This document shows, one piece after another, positions 2-33,950 of a DNA stretch of 64,000 bases (the stretch's first letter is position 1; every line of letters begins with the position of its first letter). The position numbers and the translations under genes are program-made. The notes below the pieces were generated by a model. It was given only the letters and a program-made list of their open reading frames with translations, was not told the DNA's origin and made no database searches. The DNA comes from Methanothermococcus thermolithotrophicus DSM 2095 (lineage in GTDB: Archaea; AGJL01; Methanococci; Methanococcales; Methanococcaceae): contig NZ_OX296583.1 in assembly GCF_946463545.1 (NCBI RefSeq), forward strand, positions 1,432,902 to 1,496,901, read 5' to 3'.

Positions 2-481
2 TCCACACTATTAAGAAAGTTAACTGATGCAGAACCTGAAATTAACTCCTACCCATTTACAACAAAGGGGCTAAATATAGGATATACCCAGTCTGGGATC
101 CAGATAATAGATACACCAGGAGTTTTGGATAGGCCTTTGTACGAAAGAAACGACATAGAGCTAAATGCAGTTATTGCACTTAACTATTTGGCTGATATGA
201 TACTATTTGTAATAGACCCAACTGAATACTGCGGTTACACAGTCGAAGAACAACTAAATCTCTTAAATGAAGTTAAAGAAACATTTGAAGTTCCAGTTGT
301 TGTGGTAATTAACAAAATAGATATTGAAGAAAACAAAGATAAACTGGAAAGACTATCTATCCCATCAGAAGATATAGCCGAAATTATTAAAATATCCTCC
401 CAGACAGGTCAGGGATTGGATGAAGTTAATAAAGTAATCAGAAAAGTTTTAAAAGAGACTGGAAGATTGGATAGCCAATAA
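2..481 (+). CDS. NOG1-family GTP-binding protein, C-terminal part (5' end outside window)
   Basis: Frame is open from position 2. DTPG (G3) and NKID (G4) GTPase motifs are present. The ...IQIIDTPGVLDRPLYERN... stretch is typical of archaeal Nog1-like GTPases. Confidence 0.7.
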   Translation, partial: STLLRKLTDAEPEINSYPFTTKGLNIGYTQSGIQIIDTPGVLDRPLYERNDIELNAVIALNYLADMILFVIDPTEYCGYTVEEQLNLLNEVKETFEVPVVVVINKIDIEENKDKLERLSIPSEDIAEIIKISSQTGQGLDEVNKVIRKVLKETGRLDSQ

Positions 482-483
482 TA

Positions 484-1140: not shown

Positions 1141-1148
1141 AATTATCC

Positions 1149-1808: not shown

Positions 1809-1810
1809 AT

Positions 1811-2034
1811 AATCACCTGAGTGAAACGAAGGTGAGTTACAAAAACCGTTAGGTTTTTGTTCAATCCCTACCTTAATAGGCGGAGGTTATTAAAAAAGTT
1901 AATGGTTATTTATCTAAATATTTGATTATATATGAAAATAGCTAATAAAATTAAATAAAGTTAACCTCCAAATCCTTTAAAAAAGGATTTGGAATCCCAA
2001 ATCCGATACCTCTTCACTTCGTGAAGAGATATAT
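1811..2034. repeat. Hairpin repeat elements in the selU-argJ intergenic region
   Basis: GAGTTACAAAAACCgttaGGTTTTTGTTCAATC (1834-1866), CCAAATCCtttaaaaaaGGATTTGG and CTCTTCACttcgGTGAAGAG. Confidence 0.6.
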
Positions 2035-2120
2035 TTTTAGCCGGTTTTGTATTGCTATATAGTGCCAAAGTTAGTGGAATGACTAAAAAATAAGCAAAAA
2101 TAAAAAAAGCAAAATTAAAA

Positions 2121-3374
2121 TTATGTTGTATATTCTGAGTTAATTCTTACGTATTCGTAACCTAAATCACAACCATAGGATGTATTTTCTTCATTACCTA
2201 ATTTTAAATCCACTATTATTTTTATTTTCTCATTTTTCATAATTTCTTCTGCTTTTATGAGCTCCGCTGTTCCTTCGTCTGCTATCTGTTCCCCATCCTT
2301 AACAAGATAAACCTCTTCTTTAAAATCGCCAATCAAAACGTCTATTTTATTCATGTCCATCTCTGCTCCACTGTATCCCACTGCAGCTACAATTCTACCC
2401 CAGTTAGGGTCGCTACCAAATAATGCAGTTTTTACTAAGAGTGACCTAACAACTGACATAGAAGCTTTTTTTGCATCTTCTTTGGTCTTAGCCCCTCTTA
2501 CCAAGACTTCCATGAATTTTGTAGCTCCTTCTCCATCGCTTACAATCATCTTTGCGAGCTCCCTGCATACATAGGCAATGGCTTTATCAAAAGTTTCTTT
2601 ACAGTCTTTGTAGTTAACTCCACTTTCCCCATTTGCAAGAACAAAAACAGTGTCGTTTGTGCTCATATCTCCATCCACAACTGCACTATTGAAGCTCTCA
2701 TCAACTGCATTTTGTAGTGATTCTGTTAGTTCATCCCTGTTTATTTCTATATCTGTAGTTATGAAACATAACATTGTTGCATGGAGCATGTTTGGAGCTA
2801 TCATTCCAGCCCCTTTGGCTATTCCTCCGACTCTAACTTTTTTTCCGTTAACTTCAAATTCAACTGCAGTCGTTTTTGGAAATGCGTCTGTAGTCATTAT
2901 CGCTTTTGCAGAGTTTAAATTATTGTTTTCTTTGGTTAGGATATCGTATGTTTTTTTCAGTCTATCTTTTATAATATCCATTGGCATTTTTCTACCGATT
3001 ACACCCGTAGAGGCAATCAAAACCTGATTTTCAGGAATGTTTAACAATCTTGCAGTTTCTTTAATCATTTCTTTTGCATCTTCCATTCCATCCTTTGTAA
3101 AACAGTTGGCATTACCGCTGTTTGCAACAATTGCCCTTATTTTTTCATTATTTTTTAAAATTTCCTTTGACAGTTTCACAGGATGGGCATAAACCTTGTT
3201 TGTTGTAAATACACCTGCGGCAACTGCCTCTTTTTCGGATAAAATTAAAGCTACACCGTATTTATCTTCTTTAAAACCGTTTGCTTTAAATCCTTTTGGA
3301 GCTACGACTCCATTATCGATTACTTTTATCTCCAAGTCGTTCATTGTATTATTGGTTTGATTTGTTTGTCCCAT
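2121..3374 (-). CDS. argJ: Glutamate N-acetyltransferase / amino-acid acetyltransferase ArgJ
   Basis: ArgJ-like throughout, including the ATMLCFITTD autoproteolytic site region. The likely start is the ATG at 3374, preceded by GGTGG. The ORF track extends to 3413. Confidence 0.85.
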   Translation of the reverse strand: MGQTNQTNNTMNDLEIKVIDNGVVAPKGFKANGFKEDKYGVALILSEKEAVAAGVFTTNKVYAHPVKLSKEILKNNEKIRAIVANSGNANCFTKDGMEDAKEMIKETARLLNIPENQVLIASTGVIGRKMPMDIIKDRLKKTYDILTKENNNLNSAKAIMTTDAFPKTTAVEFEVNGKKVRVGGIAKGAGMIAPNMLHATMLCFITTDIEINRDELTESLQNAVDESFNSAVVDGDMSTNDTVFVLANGESGVNYKDCKETFDKAIAYVCRELAKMIVSDGEGATKFMEVLVRGAKTKEDAKKASMSVVRSLLVKTALFGSDPNWGRIVAAVGYSGAEMDMNKIDVLIGDFKEEVYLVKDGEQIADEGTAELIKAEEIMKNEKIKIIVDLKLGNEENTSYGCDLGYEYVRINSEYTT

Positions 3375-3429
3375 TTTTCCACCTGACTTTATAGTATTGA
3401 ATATAATCGCCATTTATGATATGATATTT

Positions 3430-4749
3430 TTATTTTTTGTGAAATTGCCATACTTTCAATTTTTCTATGGTAAAGTACAATGTAATGACAAATATAAAAA
3501 ATGATGATATTAAAGTTGCAGCAGCTCCTCCAACTATCCCAATGTTCTTAACCAAGATATAGTTTAAAATGGCATTTAACACCACGCCAAAGGATATAAC
3601 ATAAAGGGGCACTTTTGCATAACCAAGACCTTGCAGTGAAGCAGCACATATTGTATATGAGCCCATAAATGCAGCTGAGATTGACAGTATCTTCAAGCTT
3701 AGGGATGATTCATAATAATCTATATTGAAGAACAGTATAAGCAATTCCTTTGAAAATATGAGGAACATAAATAAAAACGGAGTTACAATTCCTAAATTCA
3801 TCAGTATGGCTTTTTTAAAGTAATTTACATCCTTTGTTTTTGCGATTCTTGGAATTAATGGTATTGATATTGAAGATGCAAATAAAAAAAGAGCTCTTGA
3901 CAGTAGTGAAGCATAACCATATAATCCGTTTAACTGTGGGCCCAATATTGACATTATAAATATACTGTCCAAATCGCTTAAAAGTCTGTATGATGCTGTT
4001 CCAAGGGCTATAGGTATCGAATAAAGTATGACTTTTTTAACCATCGGGTTTTTAACCATTAATTTAAAACTTCTTATTTTATTTTTAGGTATCAAATTAT
4101 TTTTGGCTATAAAGTAGAATCCTAAAAGTCCTCCGATAATATAACCTAAAGATATGGATAAAATACCGCCCATCACACCGATAAGTGAAGCTAAAAAGAT
4201 TGAAAATATTATTTTTGAAGTATGCTCTGCTATCCAAGTTTTAGAGAGCTCCTTTATTTTCAAGCTACCCTGCAAAACTCCTCTATTCCATGATATAAAT
4301 GCTGAAAATGGGAGGGTCAAGGCTATGATATAATAGATATTAGCATCTAAGTTTTTGTAGTATCCTCCCAAAAAATACTTTAAAAAAATGGTGAATATTC
4401 CACCAATCAATGAAAAAATCAACATTACATTTAATACTCCGTAAATCCAAGATGTTTCATTATAATGGGATTTATTGTCGTGTTTGTATTCGGAAATAAA
4501 TTTTGCCATTGCCGGGGGTATTCCAGAGCAGAAAAAAATAACCAAAGAATCTAAAATAGGTAATACTCCCCTTAAAGTTCCAAAACCCTCTGTTCCAAGT
4601 ATGTAAGCCATTAAAAAGAAAAATATGTAGGATGCACCTTTTGAATAAATATTTGAGAATATCATGTAGAAACTATCTTTCAATAGGCCTTCTTTTCTAA
4701 GGGAATTGAGAACTTTCTTTGATTTTAGATTTTTAAATTTTTTTAACAT
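3430..4749 (-). CDS. Polysaccharide biosynthesis protein / Wzx-like flippase (MOP superfamily)
   Basis: About 12-14 predicted hydrophobic helices. Composition is typical of oligosaccharide flippases. Confidence 0.65.
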   Translation of the reverse strand: MLKKFKNLKSKKVLNSLRKEGLLKDSFYMIFSNIYSKGASYIFFFLMAYILGTEGFGTLRGVLPILDSLVIFFCSGIPPAMAKFISEYKHDNKSHYNETSWIYGVLNVMLIFSLIGGIFTIFLKYFLGGYYKNLDANIYYIIALTLPFSAFISWNRGVLQGSLKIKELSKTWIAEHTSKIIFSIFLASLIGVMGGILSISLGYIIGGLLGFYFIAKNNLIPKNKIRSFKLMVKNPMVKKVILYSIPIALGTASYRLLSDLDSIFIMSILGPQLNGLYGYASLLSRALFLFASSISIPLIPRIAKTKDVNYFKKAILMNLGIVTPFLFMFLIFSKELLILFFNIDYYESSLSLKILSISAAFMGSYTICAASLQGLGYAKVPLYVISFGVVLNAILNYILVKNIGIVGGAAATLISSFFIFVITLYFTIEKLKVWQFHKK

Positions 4750-4848
4750 AATCTCACTAAAAGAAAAATTTTATTATTAATGTTTAAACTTAAAAAAGTG
4801 TTATATAAAGAATGTACTCATTGAGTGAAGCAGAATATCCCTTGTAGA

Positions 4849-5844
4849 TTAAACCAGCTCTCCATTAAACGCCTTATTTAATATGGACTCTTTTAACTCT
4901 CTGAATATATTCAATTCTCTTTCCTGTAATTCTTCCAACCTTTTTATTTTCTCGGTTAAAATGTCTAAATAATTTACTATCTCCAACTGTCTTTCTAGAT
5001 TAGGTTGATTGTTTTTGTATGGGATTGGGATTGATAAATTATCAAATACTTCTTTTGAAATAGATGGAATTTCCGAGTCTATGGCATTTTCATTAGGAAT
5101 TGAAAAATAGTGTTTTATAAAATAATAAATAAACTTATTATAAAGATCGTTATTTATAGACGTTGATATTCTCCCAATATCTGAAATGAGAATATTATCT
5201 AGTTCTTCCATGCTTGTTATTTCATTTAATTTAACTAATTCCCAACCTTCTTTATCTGCTATTTCCCTAAAAATTTTATTTAAAACCGAGCTAAATAAAC
5301 CCCTTGTTTCACCTATTGATTTTTGTTTTAACTCTATTGCGTTATCCAAATCTTTAAAAAGGTACTCTATTTTGTCTATAATTTGTTTTTGTTTTTCAAG
5401 CGGGGGTAATAAAAATTCGAATGATTTTATTTCATCCCATGAGCTCTGTGGGTTCATTTCTTGCATGGTTTTGTTAACAAAATTTAAGAAACTTTCAGAG
5501 CTCATGGCAATTAAAAGATATTTTGAATAAATTTTAGCAATATCTGGAGTTAATACAAGTATATCTGTCGAACAGGCTCCATCTACATCTGACAAGACGG
5601 CCTTATTCAAATATTGGCTTGGTTTTCCATATAAAATATCTCCAGCATAAAATTTGTTTTTGCCATCCTCAACTTCCTTTGGGCTACCATAATTGGATAA
5701 ATGCCATTCATTGCTTTTAATGTGTTCCAAACCAACATAAACATTTTCATCCTTCATCTCTAAGGGGCTAATCTGCTCTTCTCGAGTATTGCATACTTCC
5801 CCCAATTTAACCCATTCCCAACCTTCTGGTATATTATATTCCAT
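4849..5844 (-). CDS. hsdS: Type I restriction-modification specificity subunit HsdS (two short target-recognition domains)
   Basis: Two EGWEW/EGWELVKL target-recognition-domain starts are present. A central conserved LPPLEKQ..I repeat and the C-terminal ...LEELQERE....LNKAFNGEL motif are present. Probable ATG is at 5844, preceded by GGTGA. No hsdM or hsdR is nearby. Confidence 0.75.
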   Translation of the reverse strand: MEYNIPEGWEWVKLGEVCNTREEQISPLEMKDENVYVGLEHIKSNEWHLSNYGSPKEVEDGKNKFYAGDILYGKPSQYLNKAVLSDVDGACSTDILVLTPDIAKIYSKYLLIAMSSESFLNFVNKTMQEMNPQSSWDEIKSFEFLLPPLEKQKQIIDKIEYLFKDLDNAIELKQKSIGETRGLFSSVLNKIFREIADKEGWELVKLNEITSMEELDNILISDIGRISTSINNDLYNKFIYYFIKHYFSIPNENAIDSEIPSISKEVFDNLSIPIPYKNNQPNLERQLEIVNYLDILTEKIKRLEELQERELNIFRELKESILNKAFNGELV

Positions 5845-6066
5845 AAATTCACCCACAACGATTTTAATTATAATAAATGTTTTAACTTCATTCTTTTAAA
5901 ACTTCATATGTTCTTCATATTTAATTCCTTTTATACACTTGTATCGAAATGATTAACAAGTAAATTCAAACTTATTTTAATATAAATCACTCTTCTACAT
6001 CCTTTCCTTAAATAATCCACTGTCATAGGTGTATTTTTTTCGCTTCGATTACTCCGACTACTGTTT

Positions 6067-6534
6067 TTATTCGAGCTCCTTTAAAATTTTCTCAATGATG
6101 GGTTTTAATTTTGTGAGCCCCTTTCTAATCAGTTTCCAAATTAAATTATAATCAGCATCCCAATATTGGTAAAGTAGGCTGTTTTCTATTTCTTCTAATT
6201 TTTTAAAAGGTACATTTTTATATTTTTTCTTAAATTCTTCATCAATATATTTTGACGCTTCCCCTATAATTATCAAACATTGAGATACTGCATCTTTTGT
6301 TAGTTTGTCATTTAAAAATTCTTTGTAATTCATATTTTTTGTAAATTCGATGGTGTAATTAATATTTTCTAAAATATCAGTTAAAAATACTTTATTATTT
6401 TTTTCAAATTTGTATATTAATTCGTCATCAGTTGATTTTATTAATTCTGATTTAATATTGTTTTTAAGTATTAAATTTATATTTTCATTAAATAAGTTCT
6501 CCAAATAATTTTCTAAACTTACATAATTATCCAA
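6067..6534 (-). CDS. HEPN-like protein; upstream in-frame sequence (6535-6660) encodes a truncated minimal-nucleotidyltransferase motif
   Basis: The frame stays open upstream to 6660 and encodes ...TPDIDILVEFEDE..., the nucleotidyltransferase catalytic motif. There is no start codon or GS motif. This looks like a 5'-truncated MNT-HEPN fusion next to a hairpin repeat. Confidence 0.35.
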   Translation of the reverse strand: MDNYVSLENYLENLFNENINLILKNNIKSELIKSTDDELIYKFEKNNKVFLTDILENINYTIEFTKNMNYKEFLNDKLTKDAVSQCLIIIGEASKYIDEEFKKKYKNVPFKKLEEIENSLLYQYWDADYNLIWKLIRKGLTKLKPIIEKILKELE

Positions 6535-6686
6535 ATTTTCATACTCATCTTCAAATTCAACTAAAATATCAATATCGGGTGTTTCTTGCTCCCATTTTGG
6601 TAAATCCTTTAATATTCCGATAGTTTTAACTTTGTATTTTTCTTTAGTTCTTTTTGTACTCTAAAAGTATGTTTTTTATTTCGTTT

Positions 6687-6740
6687 AAGGTTTTCGTAGC
6701 GAAGCGGAGAGCTACAAAAACCGAAGGTTTTTGTTTAATC
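6687..6740. repeat. Hairpin repeat element upstream of the truncated MNT-HEPN gene
   Basis: GTAGCgaagcggagaGCTAC, then ACAAAAACCgaaGGTTTTTGTTTAATC. Confidence 0.65.
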
Positions 6741-6816
6741 ATGATATCCCCTCGGAGCTCCCAAAAGTATATATTATGTTAATATCGTATTAATATTATA
6801 TAAATAAAAGGTGGTG

Positions 6817-7065
6817 TTAATGGTTAAAGCAATAGTCAATATTTCAGATGAAAACAATCAAGTAATTAACATTATAAAAGCAAAATACAACCTTAAAGAC
6901 AAAAGCGAAGCGATAAATAAGATAATAGAAGAATACGCAGAAATATTATTAGAACCAGAGTTAAAACCTGATTATGTTGAGAAAATAAAAAGAATTATGG
7001 AAAATGAAACACCCATACATATCGGCTCTGTTGAAGAACTAAATAAAAGATATTTGGGTGAATAG
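6817..7065 (+). CDS. RelB-like antitoxin (small DNA-binding protein)
   Basis: 82 aa, GGTGG ribosome-binding site. Its stop TAG overlaps the ATG of the downstream relE-like gene (TAGATG). Confidence 0.5.
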   Translation, partial: LMVKAIVNISDENNQVINIIKAKYNLKDKSEAINKIIEEYAEILLEPELKPDYVEKIKRIMENETPIHIGSVEELNKRYLGE

Positions 7066-7365
7066 ATGTATGATATTGAAATCATGCCCTCGTTGGATAG
7101 GATACTTACAAAATTATCTAAAAAAGATGGGAAAAAAGTAGAAATCATCTTAAAAAAGATTAGTGAAATAAACAAAAATCCACACCACTATAAAAATTTA
7201 AGAACACCAATGGAAGATTTTAAAAGAGTTCATATTGATAAAAGTTTTGTTTTAATATTTACTGTGGATGATAATGAAAAGAGAGTTATATTTGTAGATG
7301 TTGCTCACCATGATGAGATATATAAAAATAAAAGAATATCAAAAATAAAGAAAATATTGCAATAA
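7066..7365 (+). CDS. relE: RelE/ParE-family toxin
   Basis: 99 aa, basic, with a C-terminal ...KRVIFVDVAHHDEIY pattern typical of archaeal RelE. It is translationally coupled to the antitoxin. Confidence 0.6.
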   Translation: MYDIEIMPSLDRILTKLSKKDGKKVEIILKKISEINKNPHHYKNLRTPMEDFKRVHIDKSFVLIFTVDDNEKRVIFVDVAHHDEIYKNKRISKIKKILQ

Positions 7366-7566
7366 CCATATTTTTAAACTGTATTGAACCATACAGCACG
7401 TTTTATACTCCTGGAAATAACAAAGGCATATATTTAAATACTCTAAGCGCGCAGTATAAAAACCAAAATAACAAATACAACAAGGAACCACACAATAACA
7501 TAACAATAATAATTCTAAAAATAGCAAACATCAAATAATACTCTTTAAATAGTGCAGTGCTAAAAA

Positions 7567-8313
7567 CTAAACTTGCCACTTTTTTTCAAGCAAGTTTTCC
7601 ACTGACTCTTTATGAATTCCCACTGAATATCTTTCCCCATCTAACTCTATTACTGCAAAACTTCTGGATTTTTCAGACGAATCAACCCTAATATATAAAC
7701 CTCCATAATCCATCCTTGTTAAAGTATATTCTGTAAAATGCAAATGCCCATTAAGCACAATTTTTGGTTTTATCAAATTAATGGTATCCATAATCAATTT
7801 TGAACCTTTAGATATTCTGAATTTAAAACATTCCAATTCATTAGAAGAATACACAGGCAATTCAGGAGTTTCATGACAGAGAAAAAAGTCTATTGAGTAA
7901 AGAGACGTTTGAGTTTCCTCAAGAAAATTCCTTGCCTTTATTATAAATGAATCACCCCTTTGCCTTGGCACACCCTTCTTCATTAATCTCTTTTCACTAT
8001 AAATGCCATTAACTCCACATATTTTCAAACCGCAAACTTCAACCACTTCAAAATCCTGCAAAAGCGCCGACCTACCAAGACTGGGGGCAATAATCTGAGT
8101 GAGCTCTTGCATATTCTCATGATTTCCAAAAATTGTAAGGAGGGGTATTTTCTCTAGAATTGGTTGAATAGAATTTCTTGTTAATCCTTCGTCCCAATCT
8201 CCTGCTGATAGGAGTAAATCTGGCCGGGTTTCTATTATGATTTGATTTAACCATTCAAATTGAGCATTTTCTATCATAGTAGTATGCAAATCACTAATAA
8301 ATAGAATTCTCAT
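7567..8313 (-). CDS. Calcineurin-like metallophosphoesterase
   Basis: DLH, GDW.E, GNHE and GHLH metal-ligand motifs are present. Confidence 0.7.
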   Translation of the reverse strand: MRILFISDLHTTMIENAQFEWLNQIIIETRPDLLLSAGDWDEGLTRNSIQPILEKIPLLTIFGNHENMQELTQIIAPSLGRSALLQDFEVVEVCGLKICGVNGIYSEKRLMKKGVPRQRGDSFIIKARNFLEETQTSLYSIDFFLCHETPELPVYSSNELECFKFRISKGSKLIMDTINLIKPKIVLNGHLHFTEYTLTRMDYGGLYIRVDSSEKSRSFAVIELDGERYSVGIHKESVENLLEKKWQV

Positions 8314-8486
8314 ATTATCCCATAATTGTTATAACTGTTATTTTTCTGCATTTGAAGAAACTTACTAGGTTAAATGTTTGCGTATTTTTGAATATAATCG
8401 AACTTTATAATCGAGTGAGATCTACAGTTTTATTACTTGGCAAATATATTAACACATTAAATTTCAATTAAAGAGAGGACTATACT

Positions 8487-8514
8487 ATTTAAATAGTCTT
8501 AAACTGCGCCGTAC
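8487..8514. repeat. 28-bp direct repeat, left copy (ATTTAAATAGTCTTAAACTGCGCCGTAC)
   Basis: 25 of 28 positions match the copy at 19059-19086. Contains a palindromic ACTATTTAAATAGT core. Confidence 0.6.
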
Positions 8515-9949
8515 TCCAAAAAAAGGACATAAATCAACTTAAAAGTATAAAAATACCACTATAAATTACAAAGGCATAATCCCATCCAATTCAATACAAA
8601 ATAATGACCGATTTCTTTTTTTAATTTATTATCCACCGTAATCATTACTACACTGTTATCCATCATCCACAAACTTACTATTCCCTATTACCGGACCTGG
8701 AGGTTATTGCCCAACACCACCAAAAGGAGCTCTCTCACTAGCATATACTTATTAAGAGAACTAGGCACACTTGATCCAAATAGTCTGTTTTATTTAAAAT
8801 ATATTATTTTTTCTTTTAGAAGTGAATAAAAGTATTTAAAAAACATGCCTCCGTAATATTACAAAGGCATATATTCAATAAGGTTAACATTGGCATATAT
8901 TGTGTGAATGGAAAAGTAGAGAATAATATAAGTTTTTCTGATTTTTTCTAATAATTGGCGTTAAATGCGCCTCTGGTTAAGTTTCTTATGTTGGATGTTA
9001 TGTTTAAAAAACTTAAGATATGAGTAAAAATAAAATACAAGGAAGTAAATATTTACAACTTAAGTCTATATCTATCCTTTAATAGGTATTGAAAATGTTA
9101 GGTACCTTCGGATGTATGAACATGCGCCATATTTATTATATATTTCATCAAGTTTTTCATTGATTTGTTCATTTTTTCGCTTAGCAATTCATGGTTGGTG
9201 CTAACATCCTCTGCAAGAGATTTCTTTTAAGTTTTTTCATTAATTTTACATCTTTAAATTTATTTACCAAAAATTCAGACCAATCATGCTCCTTGCAAGC
9301 ATATATAAACAACTCATCCCTAACGAAGAACCTATACCTGTTTTAAAATCTTATCTTCAAATTAGTGGATAAAAAATAGAATACAGCGCTAAAAATCTAT
9401 GATACTACTGAGTCCTATTAAAATAGTTAGATAATGCCTTATAGATTAAGTTAGTCATCAAAACGAAGGGCCAAGGCTGGTTTTTACTAAAATTAAGATT
9501 ATTAACATATTTCAGATGTATGAACATGCGCCACATCATATGGTGTTAAATACACTTAAATTTCTTATAAATTGCGCTATTTAGTATTTATTGGACAATT
9601 GATTATATTGTGCCTTTGTAATATATTACAAGGGCATATACTAGTTCTGGATACTGTATAGAAAAAACTATTCGATGCTAATGATAGGTTAAAAATGAAG
9701 ATACGAAAACTTATAAAACTTTAAGCAATTTAAACTTATATACTGATGAAGAAGAGAAAAATGAAAAATTATTTAAAAGATTAAAAAAAGAAAATTAATA
9801 ATTTCCTACTTTGCTTTTTATGGGGGATATAATGGGGAATATTATGGTTTTAGAACTAATGAATTAATTGAACAAGAAGAAATAGACGAAATACATGTTT
9901 CTGGATTGTTATGGAAATTTAGATTACATATATAAAAATTTGGCAATTG

Positions 9950-10250
9950 TTGGATATGGGGGCGATTGTTTATACTTTTGGTATTAATACTGGTAAAAAG
10001 GTTTGGGAGTTTGAAACAAAAAGGGGTAATCTCATTTTGTAAGTATGGCAATATTGTGATGGTTGGATGTTATGATGATGCATTTATGCCTTAAATTCAA
10101 ATAATGGCTCTAAACTTGGGAGTTTGAGGCGAGTAGTAGTATAGAGGGTCAATGAAAAAAGATATTTTAGTGATGAAATGTAATATCGGGCATATTTATG
10201 CTTTTGATTTTAATATAATATCGGATAATCTCTTAAAAAGTAAATAAATG
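9950..10250 (+). pseudogene. Degraded PQQ-like beta-propeller gene remnant
   Basis: Broken frames encode ...AIVYTFGINTGKKVWEFETKRGN... and ...DDAF.ALNSNNGSKL.EFE....KKDILVMKCNIGHIYAFDFN. These are classic propeller blades interrupted by stops and frameshifts. Confidence 0.45.
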
Positions 10251-10336
10251 TTTTAACCGTATCGCCCTTAACGGGCTTCGTGCCTTATTGTGAGGGAACT
10301 ATAGTTGTATATATAGGATTACAATAGGGGGACATT

Positions 10337-13300
10337 ATGAATACTGATTTATCATTTTTAACTAATGAAAAGGGCAATAAACTTGTAGATAGATTTTCAA
10401 TACTATTGAAAGATACTAAATTTTTTGACTGTCTGGTTGGTTATTTTTATGCTAGTGGATTTTATGCATTATATAAATCATTAGAAAATACTGAAAAAAT
10501 TAGAATACTCGTAGGTATCAATACGGATAAAAAAACTTTTGATTTAATTCAGGAGGCTGCGGGGGACATTAAAAAATATAGACTATCATTCAAAGAAGTT
10601 AAAGAAAATTTTTCAGAAAGCATAATTTCAGAAATGGAAACTTCTGAAGACTCATGCACTGTTGAAGAAGGAATTAAAAAATTCATTGAATGGCTTAAAT
10701 CTGGAAAACTTGAAATAAGGGTATATCCCAAAGCTAAAATCCATGCAAAACTTTACATAATGAGTTTTAAAGAAGGGGATAGGGATAAAGGCAGAGTCAT
10801 TACAGGTTCAAGCAACTTCACGCGCTCTGGATTGGTGGATAATCTTGAATTCAATGTGGAATTAAAAACCAGGTCTGACTATGAATTTGCATTAAATAAA
10901 TTTAATGAATTATGGGAGGATTCGGTAGATGTTTCGGAAGAGTACGTTAGAACAGTTAATAAAAAAACATGGTTAAATGAGGACATCACGCCGTATGAAT
11001 TATATTTAAAATTCCTTTACGAATACATGAAGGAAAAAATAAATTTAGATTTAACTGATGAATTTGAAAGTAAATTCCGACCTGATAATTTTATGGATTT
11101 AAAATATCAAAGGGATGCAGTCCAAGATGCAAAACTTAAACTTGAAGAATATGGAGGAGTTTTTATTTCCGATGTTGTTGGTTTGGGAAAAACATACATA
11201 GCCACAATGTTGGTTCAGCAACTTGGTGGTGAAACTCTTGTAATTGCTCCGCCAGTATTGATTGATGAAAGAAATCCAGGCTCTTGGAAAAATGCCTTTT
11301 ATGATTTTGGAGTTAGGGGAAGATTTGTATCAAGGGGCAATTTAGATATGGCATTTGAATATGGTATTGAAAACTTTAAAAATATTATAATTGATGAATC
11401 TCATTATTTTAGAAATGAATCTACGGAGATGTATGAAAAATTATTTAGGATATGCAGTGGAAAACGGGTAATATTGGTTTCTGCAACTCCGTTAAATAAT
11501 AAGCCCATGGATATTCTTGCCCAGATAAAATTGTTTCAAAATGTTCATAATTCCACACTCCCAAATCCAAAGGTAAGGGACCTTGAAAAATTCTTTAAAA
11601 AATTAGATGCAAGACTTAAAGGAGTAGATAGGCGAAAGGACAAAGAAAAATATATGAAAATTGTTCAGGAGAATGCAAAAGAAATTCGTGAAAATGTTTT
11701 ACAGTATTTAATGGTAAGAAGGACTAGAAAAAGTATTGAGAAGTATTATTCAAAAGATTTGGAAAAACAGGGTTTGAAATTTCCAGAAGTTCAGGACCCA
11801 AAGCCAGTTTATTATGAATTTGATGAAAAGTTAGATTCAATTTTTGAAGAAACCCTTAATTTAATTACAAAAGAGTTAAAATATGCAAGATATACTCCAA
11901 TGCTATATTATAAAGGGAGAGAATTTGATAACCGAATTATTCAGCCACAAAAGAATATGGCAGGATTTATGAAAACCATGCTTTTAAAACGGCTGGAGAG
12001 TAGTTTTCACGCATTCAAGATGTCAATTAATAGGTTTATAGGTTATTACGAAAAATTTATAGCTGGATGTGAGGATGGTAATGTTTATATCAGTAAAAAA
12101 CATCTATCCAAAGTTTTTGAGTTTCAGGAAAACGATGATGAGGAGTCCATTGAAAAGTTAATAAGTGAGGGAAAGGTGGAAATCTACCCTATTAAAGATT
12201 TTGAGCCTAAACTTATTGATGACTTAAAATATGATTTAGAGATTCTAAAACATATAAAAGAAATGTGGAGCTCCGTTGATGAAGACCCGAAACTTGATAA
12301 ATTAATCGATATTTTAGAAACAGATGATGTGTTAAAGGATAATAAGGTAATAATATTTACAGAATCAGAAGAAACTGCAAAATATCTTGAAAGGGAATTA
12401 AATCCCTTGTTTAATAATAAAGTTTTGGCATTTTCTGGAACTTCTGACAATAGTTTAAGAAAAATTATAACTGAAAATTTTGATGGAAAATCAAAGGTTA
12501 AAAAGGATGAATATATGATTTTAATTTCAACAGAAGTTCTTTCAGAAGGTGTAAATTTACATAGGTCAAATGTGGTAATTAACTACGACATTCCTTGGAA
12601 TCCTTCAAGAATGATGCAGAGAGTGGGGCGTATAAACAGAGTAGATTCCAAATTTGATAAAATATATATTTATAACTTCTTTCCAGCAACAAAAATAAAT
12701 GAAAATATGGGTTTGAAGGAAGCCGCAGAGGCTAAAATTAGAAGTTTCATTGAAATGCTTGGAACTGATTCTAGGTTATTAACCGATGAAGATATAAAAT
12801 CCTTTGACTTATTTTCACGCCTTAACTCAAAAGAAACAGTCATTGGGGAAGATGAGGACGACCCTGAGTTGGCATATTTAGCATATTTGAGAGATATTCG
12901 AGACAATGATAAGGAATTATTTGATAAAATAAAAAACCTTCCTAAAAAAGCAAGGACTGCAAAAAAACATAATGAGAATTATAATTCACTGATTACATTC
13001 TTTAAAAAGGGAAAAATGAGAAAGATATATCAAACTACACCAGAGGGAGTTAAAGAACTTGATTTTTATAAGGCCGCAGAGATTCTAAAAGCAGATATTG
13101 ATACAAAAAAGATGAAAATTGGAATGGACTATTATGCTCATCTTGATATGCTTAAGAAAGAATTTAATAAAGTATTCGAAGAGGAACATGTTATTTCAAA
13201 AATTAAAATAAGAAGAAGTAGGAATGAGTCTAAATTAATTAAGTTAATAAAAGCCATAAAACAGAATGAAAGAAGGCTCACGGATGATGATGTAGAGTAT

Positions 13301-13540
13301 CTCGACAGGGTGTTGAAACTTATTGAAATAGGCGGTGTATCTAAAAATACCATAAAAACTATACTGGATAATATTAAAAAAATAAATAATAATAGTGGCA
13401 TGCTTGATTTATTCAAAATGTATAACGAGATAAAAAAAGGAATACCTTATGATTTATTCCAAAAATTAGAATTTAACTCATCGGCAAATATTGAGGGGCC
13501 TAAGGAAATAATTCTTTCTGAATATTTAGTGGGGAAGTAA
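10337..13540 (+). CDS. PLD-family nuclease fused to SNF2-family helicase (defense-type helicase-nuclease)
   Basis: N-terminal HxK...GSxN phospholipase-D motif (KIHAKLYIM...GSSNFT). SNF2 motifs GLGKT, DESH and SAT are present. The C-terminal helicase domain has the ...QRVGRINR motif. Confidence 0.85.
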   Translation: MNTDLSFLTNEKGNKLVDRFSILLKDTKFFDCLVGYFYASGFYALYKSLENTEKIRILVGINTDKKTFDLIQEAAGDIKKYRLSFKEVKENFSESIISEMETSEDSCTVEEGIKKFIEWLKSGKLEIRVYPKAKIHAKLYIMSFKEGDRDKGRVITGSSNFTRSGLVDNLEFNVELKTRSDYEFALNKFNELWEDSVDVSEEYVRTVNKKTWLNEDITPYELYLKFLYEYMKEKINLDLTDEFESKFRPDNFMDLKYQRDAVQDAKLKLEEYGGVFISDVVGLGKTYIATMLVQQLGGETLVIAPPVLIDERNPGSWKNAFYDFGVRGRFVSRGNLDMAFEYGIENFKNIIIDESHYFRNESTEMYEKLFRICSGKRVILVSATPLNNKPMDILAQIKLFQNVHNSTLPNPKVRDLEKFFKKLDARLKGVDRRKDKEKYMKIVQENAKEIRENVLQYLMVRRTRKSIEKYYSKDLEKQGLKFPEVQDPKPVYYEFDEKLDSIFEETLNLITKELKYARYTPMLYYKGREFDNRIIQPQKNMAGFMKTMLLKRLESSFHAFKMSINRFIGYYEKFIAGCEDGNVYISKKHLSKVFEFQENDDEESIEKLISEGKVEIYPIKDFEPKLIDDLKYDLEILKHIKEMWSSVDEDPKLDKLIDILETDDVLKDNKVIIFTESEETAKYLERELNPLFNNKVLAFSGTSDNSLRKIITENFDGKSKVKKDEYMILISTEVLSEGVNLHRSNVVINYDIPWNPSRMMQRVGRINRVDSKFDKIYIYNFFPATKINENMGLKEAAEAKIRSFIEMLGTDSRLLTDEDIKSFDLFSRLNSKETVIGEDEDDPELAYLAYLRDIRDNDKELFDKIKNLPKKARTAKKHNENYNSLITFFKKGKMRKIYQTTPEGVKELDFYKAAEILKADIDTKKMKIGMDYYAHLDMLKKEFNKVFEEEHVISKIKIRRSRNESKLIKLIKAIKQNERRLTDDDVEYLDRVLKLIEIGGVSKNTIKTILDNIKKINNNSGMLDLFKMYNEIKKGIPYDLFQKLEFNSSANIEGPKEIILSEYLVGK

Positions 13541-13541
13541 A

Positions 13542-15143
13542 ATGGATAGAAAAAATGCCGTAAAACTTGTTGAAAAAACTTTTGGGGGAGAGTTTAATGA
13601 GGATAGGTATTTAGAATTCGTTATCGAGATGTTTGGAGACAGTAGTTTTTTAAAATCTCCTAAGGAATATTCGATGTGGGAAGAATATGCTGAATATACT
13701 GATTCTCTCAAATATTACGGGACATATACGGACAGTTCCAATAAAACAATAGATGTTCTATCTGTGAGATTAAAAAAAGATAAATATGTTACTAAGTCGA
13801 GGACTGTGCAAAGGAACATTATTTTAAAGTGGATTGGGGGTACAAACAAAGATGGTGCATTAGTTGCATTTTACAGTGATGAGCTCGACGACTGGCGGTT
13901 TTCATTTGTTAAAATGGAGTATAAAATTACAGAAGATTTTAAAATTGAAAAGGGTTTTACTCCTGCTAAAAGGTGCTCCTTTTTAGTTGGGAAAAATGGG
14001 GCAAACTATACATGCAAAAAAAATTTTTTAAGATTGATAGTAAATGAAAATAACCCTGCTTTGGAAGAAATTGAAAACGCTTTCAATGTTGAAAATATAT
14101 CTGATGAGTTTTTAAGAAAGTATGAAAATTTATTTTCGGGTAATACTCATAACTTAAAAATTGAAGAATCACAAATAATGGACTTAAAACATATAATGTT
14201 AGATTATGGGCGTTTGCCACTTGATAATCATCAAAAAAATATTTTAGATAAACTATTGAAAACCACAAGTAAAAACATTAAACGTTTCTTAATTAAGTAC
14301 AAAAACAACTGTAATTATATACCCATCTCTGATTTTAAATTGAGAATGTTATTGTCGGATGAAGAATTAATTTTGTGTATCTTTAAAAATATGAAGTATG
14401 TGGGGAAAAATATAATATATTTGGATAAAACAGAATCAGAAATTGAAAAGGAACGCATTGAAAAAAACCAATTTAATAAATTGTTACTAAAATATAAAGA
14501 CTTATATTGTCCAGATGGTCAAATTGAGATCATATATAAGATTCTTAAGTCTCAGACAGATGAACTAAAAAATATGTTGCTAAATTATGAACATATGTCA
14601 CTTGATAATCATCAAAAGCAAATTTTAGATACAATACTGAAAACTATCGGTAGGAAGATATCATACATGAATATTTGGGTACATGATAAAGGCGGGATTA
14701 CGAATACATACTCTTACAAAAAATACAAAATGAAAATGAGTAATAAAGACTTTGCATTATTTATTCTTAAAAATGCAAAGTGGAAAAATGGGACACTATA
14801 TATTAATGAGCATAAGTGTGAAAAACAGTCATCAACTTTAAAGAAAGACAATACAGTCAAAAGAAGGGTAAAAACTAAAATGGTTATAACTTCATCAAAG
14901 AAAGTTGGAAAGTTGGAAAATATAATCATAAATAATAAATTAATGGTTAAAAAAGTTATGAGCTGTAAGTTTAATGATAACAATAATAAACTAATAGTTT
15001 ATGTGGAGCATAATAAAAAACCATTAAAAATAACTATTATTGGAAAAAATAATAAACATATTTGTTATATAAACCAGAAGGGACTTAAAAATAAAGAAAT
15101 AAAAGAAATTAAAAATAAGTATATAACACATTTAACAATTTGA
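13542..15143 (+). CDS. Paralog of the Type IIG enzyme N-terminal nuclease-like domain fused to a K/N-rich C-terminus with an internal ~30-aa duplication
   Basis: The first ~200 aa are near-identical to the N-terminus of the 15225 gene. Some DNA tracts are 100% identical. A candidate PD-(D/E)xK core is D...ELDDW...VKMEYK. The C-terminus carries two LDNHQK.ILD..LKT repeats. Confidence 0.55.
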   Translation: MDRKNAVKLVEKTFGGEFNEDRYLEFVIEMFGDSSFLKSPKEYSMWEEYAEYTDSLKYYGTYTDSSNKTIDVLSVRLKKDKYVTKSRTVQRNIILKWIGGTNKDGALVAFYSDELDDWRFSFVKMEYKITEDFKIEKGFTPAKRCSFLVGKNGANYTCKKNFLRLIVNENNPALEEIENAFNVENISDEFLRKYENLFSGNTHNLKIEESQIMDLKHIMLDYGRLPLDNHQKNILDKLLKTTSKNIKRFLIKYKNNCNYIPISDFKLRMLLSDEELILCIFKNMKYVGKNIIYLDKTESEIEKERIEKNQFNKLLLKYKDLYCPDGQIEIIYKILKSQTDELKNMLLNYEHMSLDNHQKQILDTILKTIGRKISYMNIWVHDKGGITNTYSYKKYKMKMSNKDFALFILKNAKWKNGTLYINEHKCEKQSSTLKKDNTVKRRVKTKMVITSSKKVGKLENIIINNKLMVKKVMSCKFNDNNNKLIVYVEHNKKPLKITIIGKNNKHICYINQKGLKNKEIKEIKNKYITHLTI

Positions 15144-15224
15144 ATATATATTGATTCCAAAAATAGATTTAATCGGTTAGTAGGTATGAGGAACTTAAAT
15201 AAAACTTTTTTGAGTAGTTAATAG

Positions 15225-18200
15225 GTGGAACCAATGGATAGAAAAAATGCCGTAAAACTTGTTGAAAAAACTTTTGGGGGAGAGTTTAATGAGGATAGGT
15301 ATTTAGATTTTGTTGTTGAAATGTTTGGGGATAGTAGTTTTTTAAAAGAATCTCCTAAGGAATACCTGTGGAAAGAATATAGTGAATATGCCGACTATCT
15401 TAAGTATTACGGCACATATAAGGATAGCTCCAATAAAACAATAGATATTTTATCTGTAAAATTAAAGAAAAACAAGTATAGGGATAGATCAAGGACTATG
15501 CAGCGGAACCTTATTGCAAAATGGCTTGAAAATGCAAATAAGGACGCTGCAATAGTTGCATTTTATGGCGATGAGCTCGATGACTGGCGGTTTTCATTTG
15601 TTAAAATGGAGTATAAAATTACAGAAGATTTTAAAATTGAAAAGGGTTTTACTCCTGCTAAAAGGTGCTCCTTTTTAGTTGGAAAGAACGAACCAAACCA
15701 TACCTGTAAAGAAAGATTTCTTGGCATGATAATAGCTGAGAAAAACCCAACTTTAGAGGAAATTGAAGAAGCATTCAGTGTTGAAAATGTATCCGATGAG
15801 TTTTTCAAAGAATATAAGGAGTTATTTTTAGATTTAAAAGATGAGCTCGACAAATTATTGGAATGTGATAAGGACATTAAAAAGGAATTTGAAGAAAAAG
15901 AGATTTCTACAGTGGATTTCGCTAAGAAATTGCTTGGACAGATTGTATTTATATACTTTCTCCAAAAAAGGGCTGGCTTGGTGTTCAAAGAGACCCTGAA
16001 ACTGGGAAGTTTAAAGAATGGGGAGCTGGTCCAAAAGATTTTTTAAAGAGGTTGTATGCGGGAGAATATGCCAAATATGAAAATTTCTTTAAGGAGATGT
16101 TGGAACCATTATTTTATGAAGCGTTATCTACTCAGAGGGATGATTACTATTCTCCTTTTGACTGTAAAATCCCTTTCTTAAATGGGGGACTATTTGAACC
16201 TATTGGGGGCTACAATTGGAAAGAAATTAATTTAAAATTGGACAATGGAATTTTTGAAAAAATTTTTAATGTCTTTGATAAGTATAATTTCACAATAAAA
16301 GAGGATGAACCACTGGATAAAGAGGTTGCTATTGACCCTGAAATGCTTGGGAAGGTTTTTGAAAACCTATTGGAGATTAAAGATAGGAAATCAAAAGGGG
16401 CATTCTATACTCCAAGGGAAATAGTGCATTATATGTGCCAGCAGAGTTTGATTAATTATTTGGAAACGAATACGGACATTCCACGGGAAGATATTGAAAA
16501 ATTCATATATCTCAGTGGATTTTCAACTTCGGAATATCAAAGAAAATTAATTGAACTTGAAAAAATAAATGAACAGATGAAAAAGTTTAACAATGTTTTA
16601 TCAAAAGGATACAGAAAATTATTAAATGAGCGAATAAAGTTAATTAAAAATATAAACTTTCCAAAAAGCATATTGGATAATATAGAAAAAGTTGATGAGC
16701 TATTAAGATGCGTAAAAATAGCAGACCCTGCGGTTGGTTCTGGTGCTTTTCCAGTTGGGATTATGAATGAGATTGTAAAGGCAAGGTCTATATTAACACC
16801 TTTCTTAATAGCAAAGAATAGTGCAAAAATGGAAGACCGGACACTTTATAAATTAAAATGGGAAACTATTCAAAACTGTTTATACGGCGTAGATATTGAT
16901 TCATCTGCTGTGGAAATTACAAAACTTAGGTTTTGGTTATCGTTGGTGGTGGATGAGGATAGCCTAAATAATATAAGGGCATTGCCAAATTTAGACCATA
17001 AAATAATGTGTGGAAATAGTTTGTTGGATGAATTTGAAGGAATAAAACTTTTTGATGATAGTATTCTTGAAATTCCCGAAGAAGAAGATAAAGAACCTGA
17101 GGAATTAAAAAAATTGAAAATTGAAAGGGAAAATTTAGAAAAAACCGCTAAGGAATTGATGTTAAAACAAAAATGGAAGGAACTTGAACCAGTAAGTAAA
17201 AAATTAAATGAATTATATGAATATATTAAAAAATTGGAAAATCAATATAAAAAATCAAAAAATAAAAATTTGAATGATTTACAATCTCAAATTACACTGT
17301 CCGATGCTATAAATATTAGGCGGAAAAAATCACAGGAGAAACTTGCAGAGCTCAAAAAATTGTATAAAGAATATTTCAATGCCCGAGCTAAACGGGATAA
17401 AAATGAGTATAAAGAAAAAATAGAAAAACTTGAATGGGAGCTCATAGAGGAAACACTAATAGAATCAGGAAATGAAGATGCACTGGAAAAATTGAAGCAG
17501 TATAAAAAATCAAGGTCAAAACCATTTTTCTTATGGAAGTTGTACTTTTCAGATGTATTTAGGAGAGAAAACCCTGGCTTTGATATAGTAATAGGTAATC
17601 CACCTTATGTAAGGCAGGAAAAAATAAAAGAATTAAAACCCGCACTTGAAAGAAATTATAAAACATATACTGGAGTTGCTGACCTTTATGTTTATTTCTA
17701 TGAGTTGGGATATAATATTTTAAGAGATGAGGGAGTTTTAGCATATATTACAAGTAATAAATGGATGAGAGCAAATTATGGCGAAAAATTAAGAAAATTC
17801 TTTAAAGAAAATACGAGTATAAAGGAAATTATTGATTTTGGAGGGGAAAAGGTATTTGAAACTGCAACAGTGGATACAAATATTTTGATATTTAAAAAAG
17901 GATATAAAAAAGATAATTTAATGTCTGCGGTGGATTTCACAAAAATTAAAAATTATAATGGATTTATCGATGGGATAAAAAGCAATAGGTTTAAAATACC
18001 GCAATCAGATTTGAAAGAAAATTCCTTTAATTTATCGCCACCAGAGGAATTAAATTTAAAAAAGAAGATTGAAAAAATTGGAATACCTTTAAAGGATTGG
18101 GATATAAAAATAAATTATGGAATTAAAACAGGTTTTAACGATGCTTTTATAATTGATGGAAAAACTAAGGATGAATTAATTAAAAAAGACCCAAAGAACA

Positions 18201-19048
18201 AAGAGATAATAAAACCGATTTTAAGGGGAAGGGATATAAAACGATATGGTTATGAATTTGCGGATTTATGGTTAATTTTTGTTCCTTGGCATTTTCCATT
18301 GCATAATAATTCATCAATTTCTGGGGCATCAGAGGAAGCCGAAAAGGCATTTAAGGAGCAATATCCTGATATATACAACCATTTGCTAAAATATAAGGAA
18401 AAATTAAGTAAACGAAATAAGGCTGAAACTGGAAAAAGATATGAATGGTATGCTTTACAGAGATGTGCCGCTTCGTATTATAAGGAGTTTGAGAAAGAAA
18501 AAATAATTTATCCAGAATTTAGTAGTTCATCTTGCTTTTATTTTGACAATGGGAAATATTACACATCTGATACGGCATGGTTTATTGTTGGAGGTTCTAA
18601 ATATTTGATGGTATTACTTAACTCGAAGGTAATATGGTTTTACTTAGAAAACATGGTATCCCAGCTCGGTTCGAAAGCCCTTAGGATGAAAAAAATATAT
18701 TTAGAAAAACTACCTATCCCAAAAATCCCAGAAGACCAACAAATCCCATTCATAGAAAAAGCGGATAAAATGATTGAATTAAATAAAAAATTCATAAATA
18801 AAAAGAATGAATTTTTAAAATCATTAAACCTAACTAAAATTACTAAGAAATTAGAAACATTTTATAATTTAAGTTATGAAGAATTCCTAAAAGAATTAAA
18901 GAAGCAAAAAATTAATACAGATTCTTTAAACGATTTAGAAAACCGCTTCAACAGCTACAAAAAGGAATTAATGGAAATAAAACAGGAAATAGAAAAAACA
19001 GATAAAGAAATCGATAAAATGGTTTGTATAATCCTAAAAAAACTATAA
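15225..19048 (+). CDS. Type IIG restriction-modification enzyme (N-terminal nuclease domain plus gamma-class N6-adenine methyltransferase plus target-recognition domain), interrupted by a frameshift at a T6 run (16039-16044)
   Basis: The ORFs 15225-16046 and 16052-19048 join into one frame if T6 is read as T7. Methyltransferase motif X (GAFYTPREIV), motif I (ADPAVGSGAFP) and motif IV (GNPPYV) are present. Confidence 0.8.
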
Positions 19049-19058
19049 CATTTAAATA

Positions 19059-19086
19059 GTCTTAAATTACACCGTACAATATCTTA
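19059..19086. repeat. 28-bp direct repeat, right copy (ATTTAAATAGTCTTAAATTACACCGTAC)
   Basis: Matches the copy at 8487-8514. It lies immediately 3' of the Type IIG gene and abuts the stop of an hsdS fragment. Confidence 0.6.
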
Positions 19087-33456: not shown

Positions 33457-33950
33457 AATCCCACCATTTATAAATAAATGTCGTTTTATTATATGATAAA
33501 ACCTTCGGTTTTGTCGATTAGTTTTTTAAAAACAACAATATTAGTAAACTCCTAATTTTACAACCTACATTTAAATTTTAAGTATAAAAAGGTTTTTAAC
33601 TAATTATTTAAAAAGGTATGGCACAAAAATTAAGCAATTTGTGTAAAGAATATATGCAATTATTCACAAAAATAATAAATTAGTATTTTTTTAGTATTAT
33701 CAAAATAGATAGTTTATTAATTTTCCTTTTTAAAAATATAAAAAATATGCCATTGTAATTTACAAAGGCATAATATGCATTATAACAGTTTCGAGTTTTA
33801 CTTAAAGGAAATTCGAAACTTAATTTATAATTGTGAATGTAATAAAGTGATATTATTTTTATCCTTTATCCATTTTGGACAAAATTAAAAGTACTCCAAA
33901 AAAACCAAAATATTATATATTCTAAAAATCAAATTATATTTTGTGATATT

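Follow-up and report, generated by a model that had tools for sequence, protein, structure and literature searches.

A dispersed inverted-repeat family in gene debris and at promoters of accessory and mobile DNA related to Methanothermococcus thermolithotrophicus

In the genome of Methanothermococcus thermolithotrophicus DSM 2095, a stretch of about 2 kb without open reading frames (ORFs) carries several copies of a short palindrome, another copy of which lies some 24 kb further on, upstream of a cluster of kinase and Vps4-like genes. The question raised by this locus is what these palindromes are, and whether they are operators, as an earlier note on this DNA had proposed when it described the ORF-free stretch (8340-10336) as pseudogene debris with an operator-like motif and suggested that one dimeric regulator ties two accessory regions together. 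Positions given here are those of the window, the 64,000-nucleotide piece of contig NZ_OX296583.1 that was analysed, unless a contig is named. The palindromes belong to an undescribed, lineage-specific inverted-repeat family of ~26 bp, and a 10.5-kb block that varies between strains has the ORF-free stretch as its decayed left end. The arms of the palindromes are under sequence constraint and, in two module classes, recur at fixed distances from promoters, and diverged versions are found in integrase-bearing mobile elements.

The palindrome family

Half-sites were counted over the whole window with the 12-mer ATTACAAAGGCA, using the expected number and 100 shuffled sequences as controls. Ten matches with at most one mismatch were found against 0.64 expected, a number that 0 of the 100 shuffles reached, and allowing two mismatches gave 26 matches against 12.0 expected. 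Two non-coding areas hold seven of the ten closer matches, while the three intragenic ones (30583, 60631 and 60702) are without partner arm and without flanking T, and are at chance level. The five half-site copies reported earlier, three of them full palindromes, are confirmed by the sequence (Table 1), with positions off by one or two bases in places. Thus, the half-sites placed at 7419-7430 and 8565-8579 are found at 7417-7428 and 8565-8576, and the copy placed at 33749-33772 at 33748-33770. The ATAT previously read between the 12-mers of the copy at 9611-9636 has to be corrected, since this copy is 26 nt long and its gap is AT. When aligned, both half-sites (7417 and 8565) turn out to keep about 8 of the 12 left-arm bases, and they therefore look like decayed palindromes; neither folds as a hairpin. 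The copy at 7405-7432 lies between convergent genes for a ParE toxin and a metallophosphatase, outside the strain-variable block. The palindromes within the ORF-free stretch border gene fragments; those at 8553-8580 and 8846-8869 lie on either side of a piece of a gene referred to here as gene X.

The consensus of the family is YATGCC-N-TTGTAA (1-5 nt) TTACAA-N-GGCATR, and a strict pattern, TGCCNTTGTAA N{0,6} TTACAANGGCA, was used to scan other DNA. Among 185,579 species genomes it gave 26 matches, all of them bacterial and at chance level and none in Methanococcales; the window's own genome, which has two matches, was not returned, probably because it was masked. Viral contigs gave four matches, taken as chance from their low count. 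Metagenomes yielded 75 loci, 47 of which are low-GC contigs (19-35% GC) that come mostly from one set of European Nucleotide Archive assemblies. About 42 of these 47 carry the palindrome element, in 17 distinct flanking contexts that have only the ~30-bp palindrome in common. On some of these contigs a kinase is encoded that is 84% identical to the window's kinase, and the contigs therefore come from the same genus or represent paralogous regions of the same species. Counting full copies with at most one mismatch per arm in the window and the related low-GC contigs gave 37 distinct palindromes, window included. None of the 37 falls within a credible gene (the only ORFs overlapped, by two copies, are short and doubtful), in 8 of the 17 contexts a stop codon precedes the palindrome by 3-33 nt, and a few copies lie between convergent genes. 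The neighbouring genes sampled are mostly of accessory or defence type, encoding helicases, HerA/NurA, HsdM, ATPase_2/DUF234, TPR proteins and kinases. A literature search returned no description of the palindrome sequence or family, of miniature inverted-repeat transposable elements (MITEs) in Methanococcales, or of palindromes in Methanothermococcus.

The pattern of variation within the arms indicates what is conserved in this family. Partners of the perfect right arms (n=75) are perfect in 42 cases and carry one mismatch in 15, the remaining arms being solo or having a decayed partner, and the change at the 11 specified arm positions amounts to ~2.4%. Among the 42 perfect arms, the inner N is A in 15, T in 21 and C in 6; the N of one arm pairs with that of the other in 12 of 37 palindromes, about as independence predicts, and the few other variants (TGTTA, TAACA) are uncompensated. 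It is thus the sequence of the arms that is kept and not their ability to pair. The predicted hairpins have low stability, with folding energies of -5 to -8 kcal/mol for DNA at 37 C, and M. thermolithotrophicus grows near 65 C. The gap between the 11-mer arms of the 37 copies is 4 nt in 21, 1 nt in 14, and 3 nt and 5 nt in one copy each; the window copy at 8846 has a 2-nt gap, and in diverged elements 8-35 nt separate the arms. An intergenic module of which nine copies were compared has unrelated left flanks and a palindrome that is invariant except for N. Strains of the species are 100% identical in this region and hence provide no footprinting information, and no insertion/absence polymorphism of palindromes was found among overlapping contigs.

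In two module classes the palindrome, or an arm of it, occupies a defined place with respect to promoters. On a group of small-gene contigs, a conserved module of ~115 nt starts, at its 5' end, precisely with the palindrome, which is followed by 29 nt, the sequence AAAGTTTAAATAGT that resembles a B recognition element (BRE) and TATA box, then a 5' untranslated region (5'UTR) and, after ~45 nt, AGGAGGT and the ATG. This module is reused before at least five unrelated genes. In a second class, an arm lies ~21 nt before the TATA box of motif 2 (AACTATAATCTTTAAATACTTTTAAAC), a promoter-like repeat. Copies outside these classes of fixed TATA offset include some between convergent genes and some in ORF-free arrays.

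The link to mobile elements is provided by gene X, the product of which is a predicted surface protein of 262-273 aa. Its homologues form seven clusters in 5.8 billion proteins, all of them unnamed, and two of these clusters represent intact gene X in mobile elements from vent metagenomes. The gene order of these elements is tyrosine integrase, 101-107-aa protein, gene X, 285-aa protein (opposite strand), MJ0349-like protein, MCM and HTH_17 protein, and they carry diverged inverted repeats of the form ATGCCACTG..CAGTGGCAT in three places (Table 1), flanking or preceding promoters. Contig L096 has a canonical palindrome 53 nt upstream of a 244-aa gene that is homologous to the 285-aa gene of L128. 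Comparison of these two sites indicates that the element type stays at the promoter while both arms change together. With the palindrome 29 nt upstream of a BRE/TATA box in the module and its diverged versions at promoters of integrase/MCM elements, the description of the motif as operator-like is plausible.

Upstream of the integrase genes in L122 and L128 there is a GC-rich, strongly self-complementary sequence of ~150-190 nt (L122 100-290, L128 260-390) that might be a structured RNA or a tRNA-like attachment site. Contig L069 bears two insertions (378-1418 and 1449-2813) next to a palindrome copy, neither of which is present in the overlapping contigs L086 and L095. One is a ~1-kb insertion sequence whose terminal inverted repeats (CCKTAGTTCCCATCA) measure 15 bp, and the other a TnpB gene flanked by GC-rich hairpins.

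The ORF-free stretch, the variable block and the kinase cluster

The absence of a credible ORF from 8340-10336 holds, none exceeding 69 aa, and a six-frame Pfam search of the stretch gave no match. Comparison with related DNA allowed three gene fragments to be identified (Table 1), which bears out the earlier view of this stretch as pseudogene debris and, within it, of a decayed PQQ beta-propeller gene. The propeller fragment matches two proteins in their propeller parts, with E ~1e-5: a propeller-PEGA-kinase protein of 1040 aa (L076) and a TPR/propeller protein of 658 aa (L106). Homology to the 213-aa gene at 36256-36897 begins 10-25 nt past the palindrome at 9611-9636. The stretch is a patchwork of fragments from one mobile-element gene and two paralogues of genes of the Vps4-like/kinase cluster. 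No similarity to any contig fetched was found for 8870-9580, and a plasmid database queried with the ORF-free stretch and with a palindrome-rich contig gave no match. Integrase remnants were not found in the window, nor did Rfam give a match (whole window at the gathering threshold; 7300-10400 at E up to 1), and a tRNA scan found none, so that there is no tRNA-type attachment site. The 22-nt direct repeat that had been noticed within this DNA is real, with two copies found in the window against 0 expected; the one at 9111-9132 has a TGCGCCAYAT box that is common to the sequence 3' of motif-2 promoters in related contigs.

That this debris belongs to a strain-variable block follows from a comparison of strains. 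Contig AQXV01000032.1 (GCA_000376965.1) is 100% identical to window positions 1-13990; accessions of the AQXV series belong to strain DSM 2095 (PMC6972569). A look-up of the metallophosphatase protein gave six loci, four of them essentially identical to the window. In locus L003, the flanks are 99.7% identical to the window, but 8514 is joined directly to 19042, the counterpart of the junction being 9800-9835. The block missing from L003 consists of the ORF-free debris and four genes (Table 1), and the ORF-free 2 kb are dead DNA inside a strain-variable defence island. Its ends are marked by an imperfect 36-bp direct repeat that is the same sequence as motif 2, and recombination between two of these dispersed promoter repeats is therefore the most likely origin of the 10.5-kb indel. 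A segment found in L112, L101, L085 and L120 matches window 8479-8553 with 84-86% identity. In L112, the 85%-identical match lies in the closest analogue of the window's ORF-free stretch, a 1.4-kb ORF-free stretch (4619-6059) past HerA/NurA genes in which about a dozen palindrome arms and several motif-2 repeats are present in both orientations.

Two candidate interpretations of the region were ruled out. A single 24-kb island reaching from the 9.6-kb to the 33.7-kb copy is incompatible with the core genes at 19-33 kb (GMP synthase, CTP synthase, Hel308, CbiMNQ). A chromosomal origin at the ORF-free stretch is likewise rejected, because the GC-skew turn at 9 kb tracks gene orientation and the stretch is missing from the sister strain. 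Just past the block, a 119-bp segment at 19078-19193 is 74% identical to 4904-5022 in the HsdS (Methylase_S) gene at 4849-5856, and is probably the remnant of a second specificity-subunit gene. The block is adjoined on its other side by toxin-antitoxin genes at 6067-7365 (a HepT-like ribonuclease, and a DUF2683 and ParE-like pair). The Hel308-type helicase gene at 22503-26261 has an intein with a LAGLIDADG endonuclease domain, and is called as two ORFs in L003.

Table 1. Palindromes, repeats and gene remnants in the window, with diverged repeats of related mobile elements
Feature	Position	Strand	Remarks
Vestigial palindrome	7405..7432	.	Right arm ATAACAAAGGCA (7417-7428) good; left arm keeps ~8/12 bases
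Vestigial palindrome	8553..8580	.	Right arm ATTACAAAGGCA (8565-8576) perfect; left arm ATACCACTATAA, 3 mismatches
Palindrome TGCCTCCGTAATATTACAAAGGCA, 24 nt	8846..8869	.	Left arm with 2 mismatches (TCC for TTT)
Palindrome TGCCTTTGTAATATATTACAAGGGCA, 26 nt	9611..9636	.	Commonest class of the family, TATA between 11-mer arms
Palindrome TGCCATTGTAATTTACAAAGGCA, 23 nt	33748..33770	.	Divergent spacer between polyferredoxin gene and Vps4-like/kinase cluster
Direct repeat copy 1, 22-26 nt	9111..9132	+	Exact except Y position
Direct repeat copy 2, 22-26 nt	9515..9536	+	Exact except Y position
Gene X fragment, internal, frameshifted	8654..8790	+	tblastn 61% over 31 aa, E 6e-6
Decayed C-terminal end, paralogue of 213-aa gene	9647..9802	+	blastn 73%/150 nt, E 7e-19; tblastn E 3.5e-6
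Decayed PQQ-like beta-propeller fragment	9971..10223	+	Related to propeller-PEGA-kinase genes
Strain-variable block, 10.5 kb	8515..19041	.	Absent from L003
PLD/SNF2 helicase, 1067 aa	10337-13540		Variable block
533-aa and 273-aa ORFs			Variable block; no Pfam match
Eco57I/TaqI_C-type methyltransferase, 998 aa	16052-19048		Variable block
36-bp imperfect direct repeat, left copy	8479..8514	+	~86% identical to right copy; promoter-like motif 2 (ACTATTTAAATAGTCTTAAACTGCGCC)
36-bp imperfect direct repeat, right copy	19042..19077	+	Bounds variable block
Recurrent hairpin motif TTTCGAGTTT..AAAGGAAATTCGAAA	33789..33818	+	19 nt from palindrome
Weaker copy of the hairpin motif	45590-45611		Just past other cluster end; direct orientation
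Diverged repeat	L122		Around TATA-like box directly before integrase ATG
Diverged repeat	L122		Divergent promoter region, 35-nt AT-rich spacer
Diverged repeat	L128		78 nt upstream of 285-aa gene

The copy at 33748-33770 has a different setting. It lies in a divergent spacer of 494 bp, 291 nt from the polyferredoxin gene, and ends 180 nt before the ATG at 33951, in agreement with the ~180 bp given earlier for its distance to the first gene of the cluster, and it is identical in 10 of the 10 strain loci examined. Close to it is a second recurrent hairpin motif, which also adjoins palindromes in L106, L061 and L070. The pair of palindrome and hairpin motif is found upstream of the paralogous kinase clusters of L106, L072 and L061, and the window copy could therefore still be in use. 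The two copies of the hairpin motif, one at either end of the window's cluster, may be boundaries of a mobile or duplicated unit.

The cluster itself (33951-45430) encodes two ~210-aa proteins without Pfam match, a Vps4-like AAA ATPase (Vps4_C match), a propeller-PEGA-kinase, a DUF4013 protein, a second kinase and a PP2C phosphatase; in L106, the corresponding neighbourhood encodes a TPR protein with a MIT-domain match. For Methanococcales, an ESCRT-like module would be unusual. The beta-propeller-PEGA-kinase gene of 916 aa is split in the window strain into overlapping ORFs (39023-39646, 39579-40586 and 40555-41775) and is one intact gene in L037, L039 and L046 (1680-4434), while L040 and L041 have large internal deletions in the same cluster.

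Weighing the possible roles of the arms

The reading that we favour, tentatively and at a little under an even chance, is that the arms are double-stranded-DNA sites of a regulator belonging to a family of mobile elements, which would work at promoters, and that the window copies are mostly relics. Each 9-12-nt arm would be the recognition site of a sequence-specific double-stranded-DNA-binding protein, presumably the regulator of the integrase/MCM mobile-element family, and the arm pair would act as an operator or upstream element. The palindrome element would then belong to integrase/MCM-type mobile elements and to accessory islands derived from them, the ORF-free stretch being the putative remnant of a mobile element of this kind, with pieces of kinase-cluster paralogues mixed in. 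The copies at 7.4-9.6 kb would be relics with nothing left to control, while the copy at 33748-33770, in a live divergent promoter region, may still act and is the sole candidate for a working site in the window. Candidates for the binding protein include the winged helix-turn-helix protein encoded at 45724-46458, the HTH_17 and 101-107-aa proteins of the elements, and a 140-aa protein of L057 that, judged by eye, resembles a winged helix. The proposal that one dimeric regulator connects the two accessory regions appears too narrow, as the palindromes form a dispersed family of dozens and not a two-locus system and their spacing varies. Moreover, the surroundings of four of the five window copies, dead DNA or a pair of convergent genes, leave nothing to regulate, and the connection of the two regions is not borne out.

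Several observations weigh against a regulatory role of the arms. An operator of a rigid homodimer has two equivalent half-sites at a constant distance; equivalent half-sites are present here, as the 42 perfect partners of 75 arms show, but the spacing is 1, 3, 4 or 5 nt, and 8-35 nt in diverged elements, which a classical rigid dimer would not tolerate. Typical regulons have a smaller share of sites that are perfect over 24-30 bp. Stop codons precede several copies by 3-33 nt, some copies are situated between convergent genes, about a dozen arms fill the 1.4-kb ORF-free stretch of L112, and only ~18% of arm flanks show, at the two preferred offsets, an 8-mer that is TATA-like in the strict sense. 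In addition, the metagenome contigs were picked for carrying the motif, and no cognate regulator was found for the palindrome.

Part of this distribution would be accounted for if the palindrome were a selfish element related to repetitive extragenic palindromic (REP) sequences or MITEs, that is, a ~26-bp unit that spreads as a single-stranded-DNA hairpin with the help of an enzyme and piles up in intergenic DNA. Dozens of near-identical copies with unrelated flanks, their position in intergenic or ORF-poor DNA, often after stop codons and sometimes between convergent genes, and clusters in ORF-free stretches that resemble arrays of bacterial interspersed mosaic elements (BIMEs) are all in line with such spreading. 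Also, a centre of variable length is what a hairpin loop allows, and the flanking T-A and T-R could be a TA target duplication. We nevertheless consider this origin unlikely, as the hairpins are weak, compensatory changes are missing and the sole variable position of the stem does not covary. Copies remain invariant even where the flanks can no longer be aligned, as if kept by selection and not simply young, and overlapping contigs did not reveal insertion/absence polymorphism. The GTAG/CGTC tag of bacterial REPs (PMC3733652) is missing, both sides ending in YA-TGCC...GGCA-TR, and according to a 2018 survey archaea have only Y1 transposases of the IS200 type and not of the type of REP-associated tyrosine transposases (RAYTs; PMC6006769). 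The hairpins of the only TnpB element sampled are of another, GC-rich kind. Still less probable is that the palindrome is the recombination site or cassette junction of a tyrosine integrase of mobile elements, with crossing-over shuffling cassettes and truncating genes. Module copies are homologous from the very start of the palindrome and unrelated to the left of it, as expected of a junction. The 213-aa-gene fragment that starts 10-25 nt past one palindrome, the gene X fragment between two others and the 5'-truncated gene X that begins ~60 nt after a palindrome in L074 and L093 fit as well, as do the company of integrase-bearing elements in which the family travels and the possibility to read the 26-mer as 10-6-10, the layout of recombinase cores. 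Such cores, however, need a fixed 6-8 bp and the spacer here varies in length, the other boundary of the module is the ATG and not a second palindrome, the 10.5-kb indel is bounded by motif 2 and not by palindromes, and no integrase remnant was found in the window.

The presence of MCM genes in the elements raises the idea that the palindromes are initiator binding sites and the ORF-free stretch a dead plasmid origin. AT-rich, ORF-free and repeat-rich DNA is the usual criterion for an origin (PMC6972569), inverted arms flank AT-rich spacers of variable length, and TTACAGTGGCAT loosely resembles the Pyrococcus mini-ORB (origin recognition box) TTCCAGTGGAACT. With the conserved ORB cores TTCC and GAA missing from the arms, copies dispersed at promoters and after genes rather than gathered in one cluster per element, and no adjacent initiator gene in the window, this idea appears highly improbable. 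Least likely of all the rivals, and hardly credible, is a hairpin in 3'UTRs that ends or stabilises transcripts at the RNA level. In 8 of the 17 contexts the short distance to a preceding stop codon would suit such a hairpin, and T-runs follow some copies (on the minus strand at 8846 and 33748, and in L076 and L070), but among the inspected copies these runs do not recur consistently, many copies are situated upstream of promoters or within spacers that do not look transcribed, and a perfect palindrome gives no strand information. The absence of covariation and the weakness of the AT-rich stems in an organism growing near 65 C point in the same direction. A more comprehensive alternative, that the palindromes are either the recognition repeats of a replication-initiation or recombination system of MCM/integrase elements or the first REP-like self-spreading family in archaea, seems improbable to us. 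If the initiation or recombination reading were true, ORF-free repeat-rich stretches would be captured or dead origins of elements, or sites of cassette exchange. In Methanococcales there is no recognisable Orc1/Cdc6 and no mapped origin (PMC3984812).

Independently of how the arms act, the family is of interest because the cis-elements of archaeal mobile elements are almost unknown, and for Methanococcales no replication origin and no regulator of integrated elements has been defined. The 26-bp palindrome offers a short bait for its putative binding protein, is a possible marker of mobile-element-derived DNA in Methanothermococcus genomes, and bears on the reuse of promoter modules before unrelated accessory genes.

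Comparison with known systems

Bacterial REP and BIME elements, and the REPINs that are associated with RAYTs, are extragenic palindromes of 20-40 bp in high copy number, sometimes clustered and often located after genes (PMC2817692, PMC3116915, PMC3733652), as are the palindromes described here. The latter differ in lacking the tag and compensatory pairing and in having stems that are AT-rich rather than GC-rich. General Pfam scans of window and contig proteins (in the 85-protein scan, the top 25 families) gave no Y1 (HUH) RAYT gene, and RAYT classes have not been reported in archaea (PMC6006769). That the palindromes are ends of IS200/IS605 elements is ruled out by the different, GC-rich hairpins that flank the TnpB element of L069. 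Archaeal ORB and mini-ORB sequences, which are bound by Orc1/Cdc6 (PMC1904270), are 12-13-nt inverted repeats around AT-rich DNA that cluster in ORF-free regions, and the arms resemble them loosely (TT.CAGTGG.A.). In contrast to ORBs, the arms read TTAC..GGCA in place of the TTCC/GAA cores (PMC1904270), and the palindromes are dispersed, with no initiator gene near 7-10 kb or 33.7 kb.

Recombination sites and transposons offer further comparisons. Integron attC sites are, like these palindromes, imperfect palindromes with a variable centre that directly follow cassette ORFs, with unrelated neighbouring cassettes. However, attC sites measure 55-141 bp and have an R''/L''-L'/R' core with GTTRRRY, whereas the palindromes measure 23-27 bp and have no GTTRRRY, the cassettes carry their own promoters, and no integrase of the IntI type is adjacent. 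The Xer/dif site exists as a single chromosomal copy with an 11-6-11 layout, in contrast to five copies in 64 kb, dozens in relatives and variable spacers. In a MITE, the palindrome arms could be the terminal repeats and the T-A flanks a duplication, but the interior would comprise just 1-5 nt and no polymorphic insertion was seen among overlapping contigs.

Finally, the OB sites of the plasmid RK2 protein KorB and the "stoperators" of Cluster A mycobacteriophages are dispersed operator sets, in which one element-encoded DNA-binding protein reads all sites. Unlike these sets, the palindromes occur in an archaeal host with BRE/TATA promoters, consist of 9-12-nt arms with variable spacing, and have copies also in chromosomal accessory islands and in dead DNA. 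Like them, they are many near-identical short sites that are situated in intergenic spacers, at varying distances from promoters and in some cases after stop codons.

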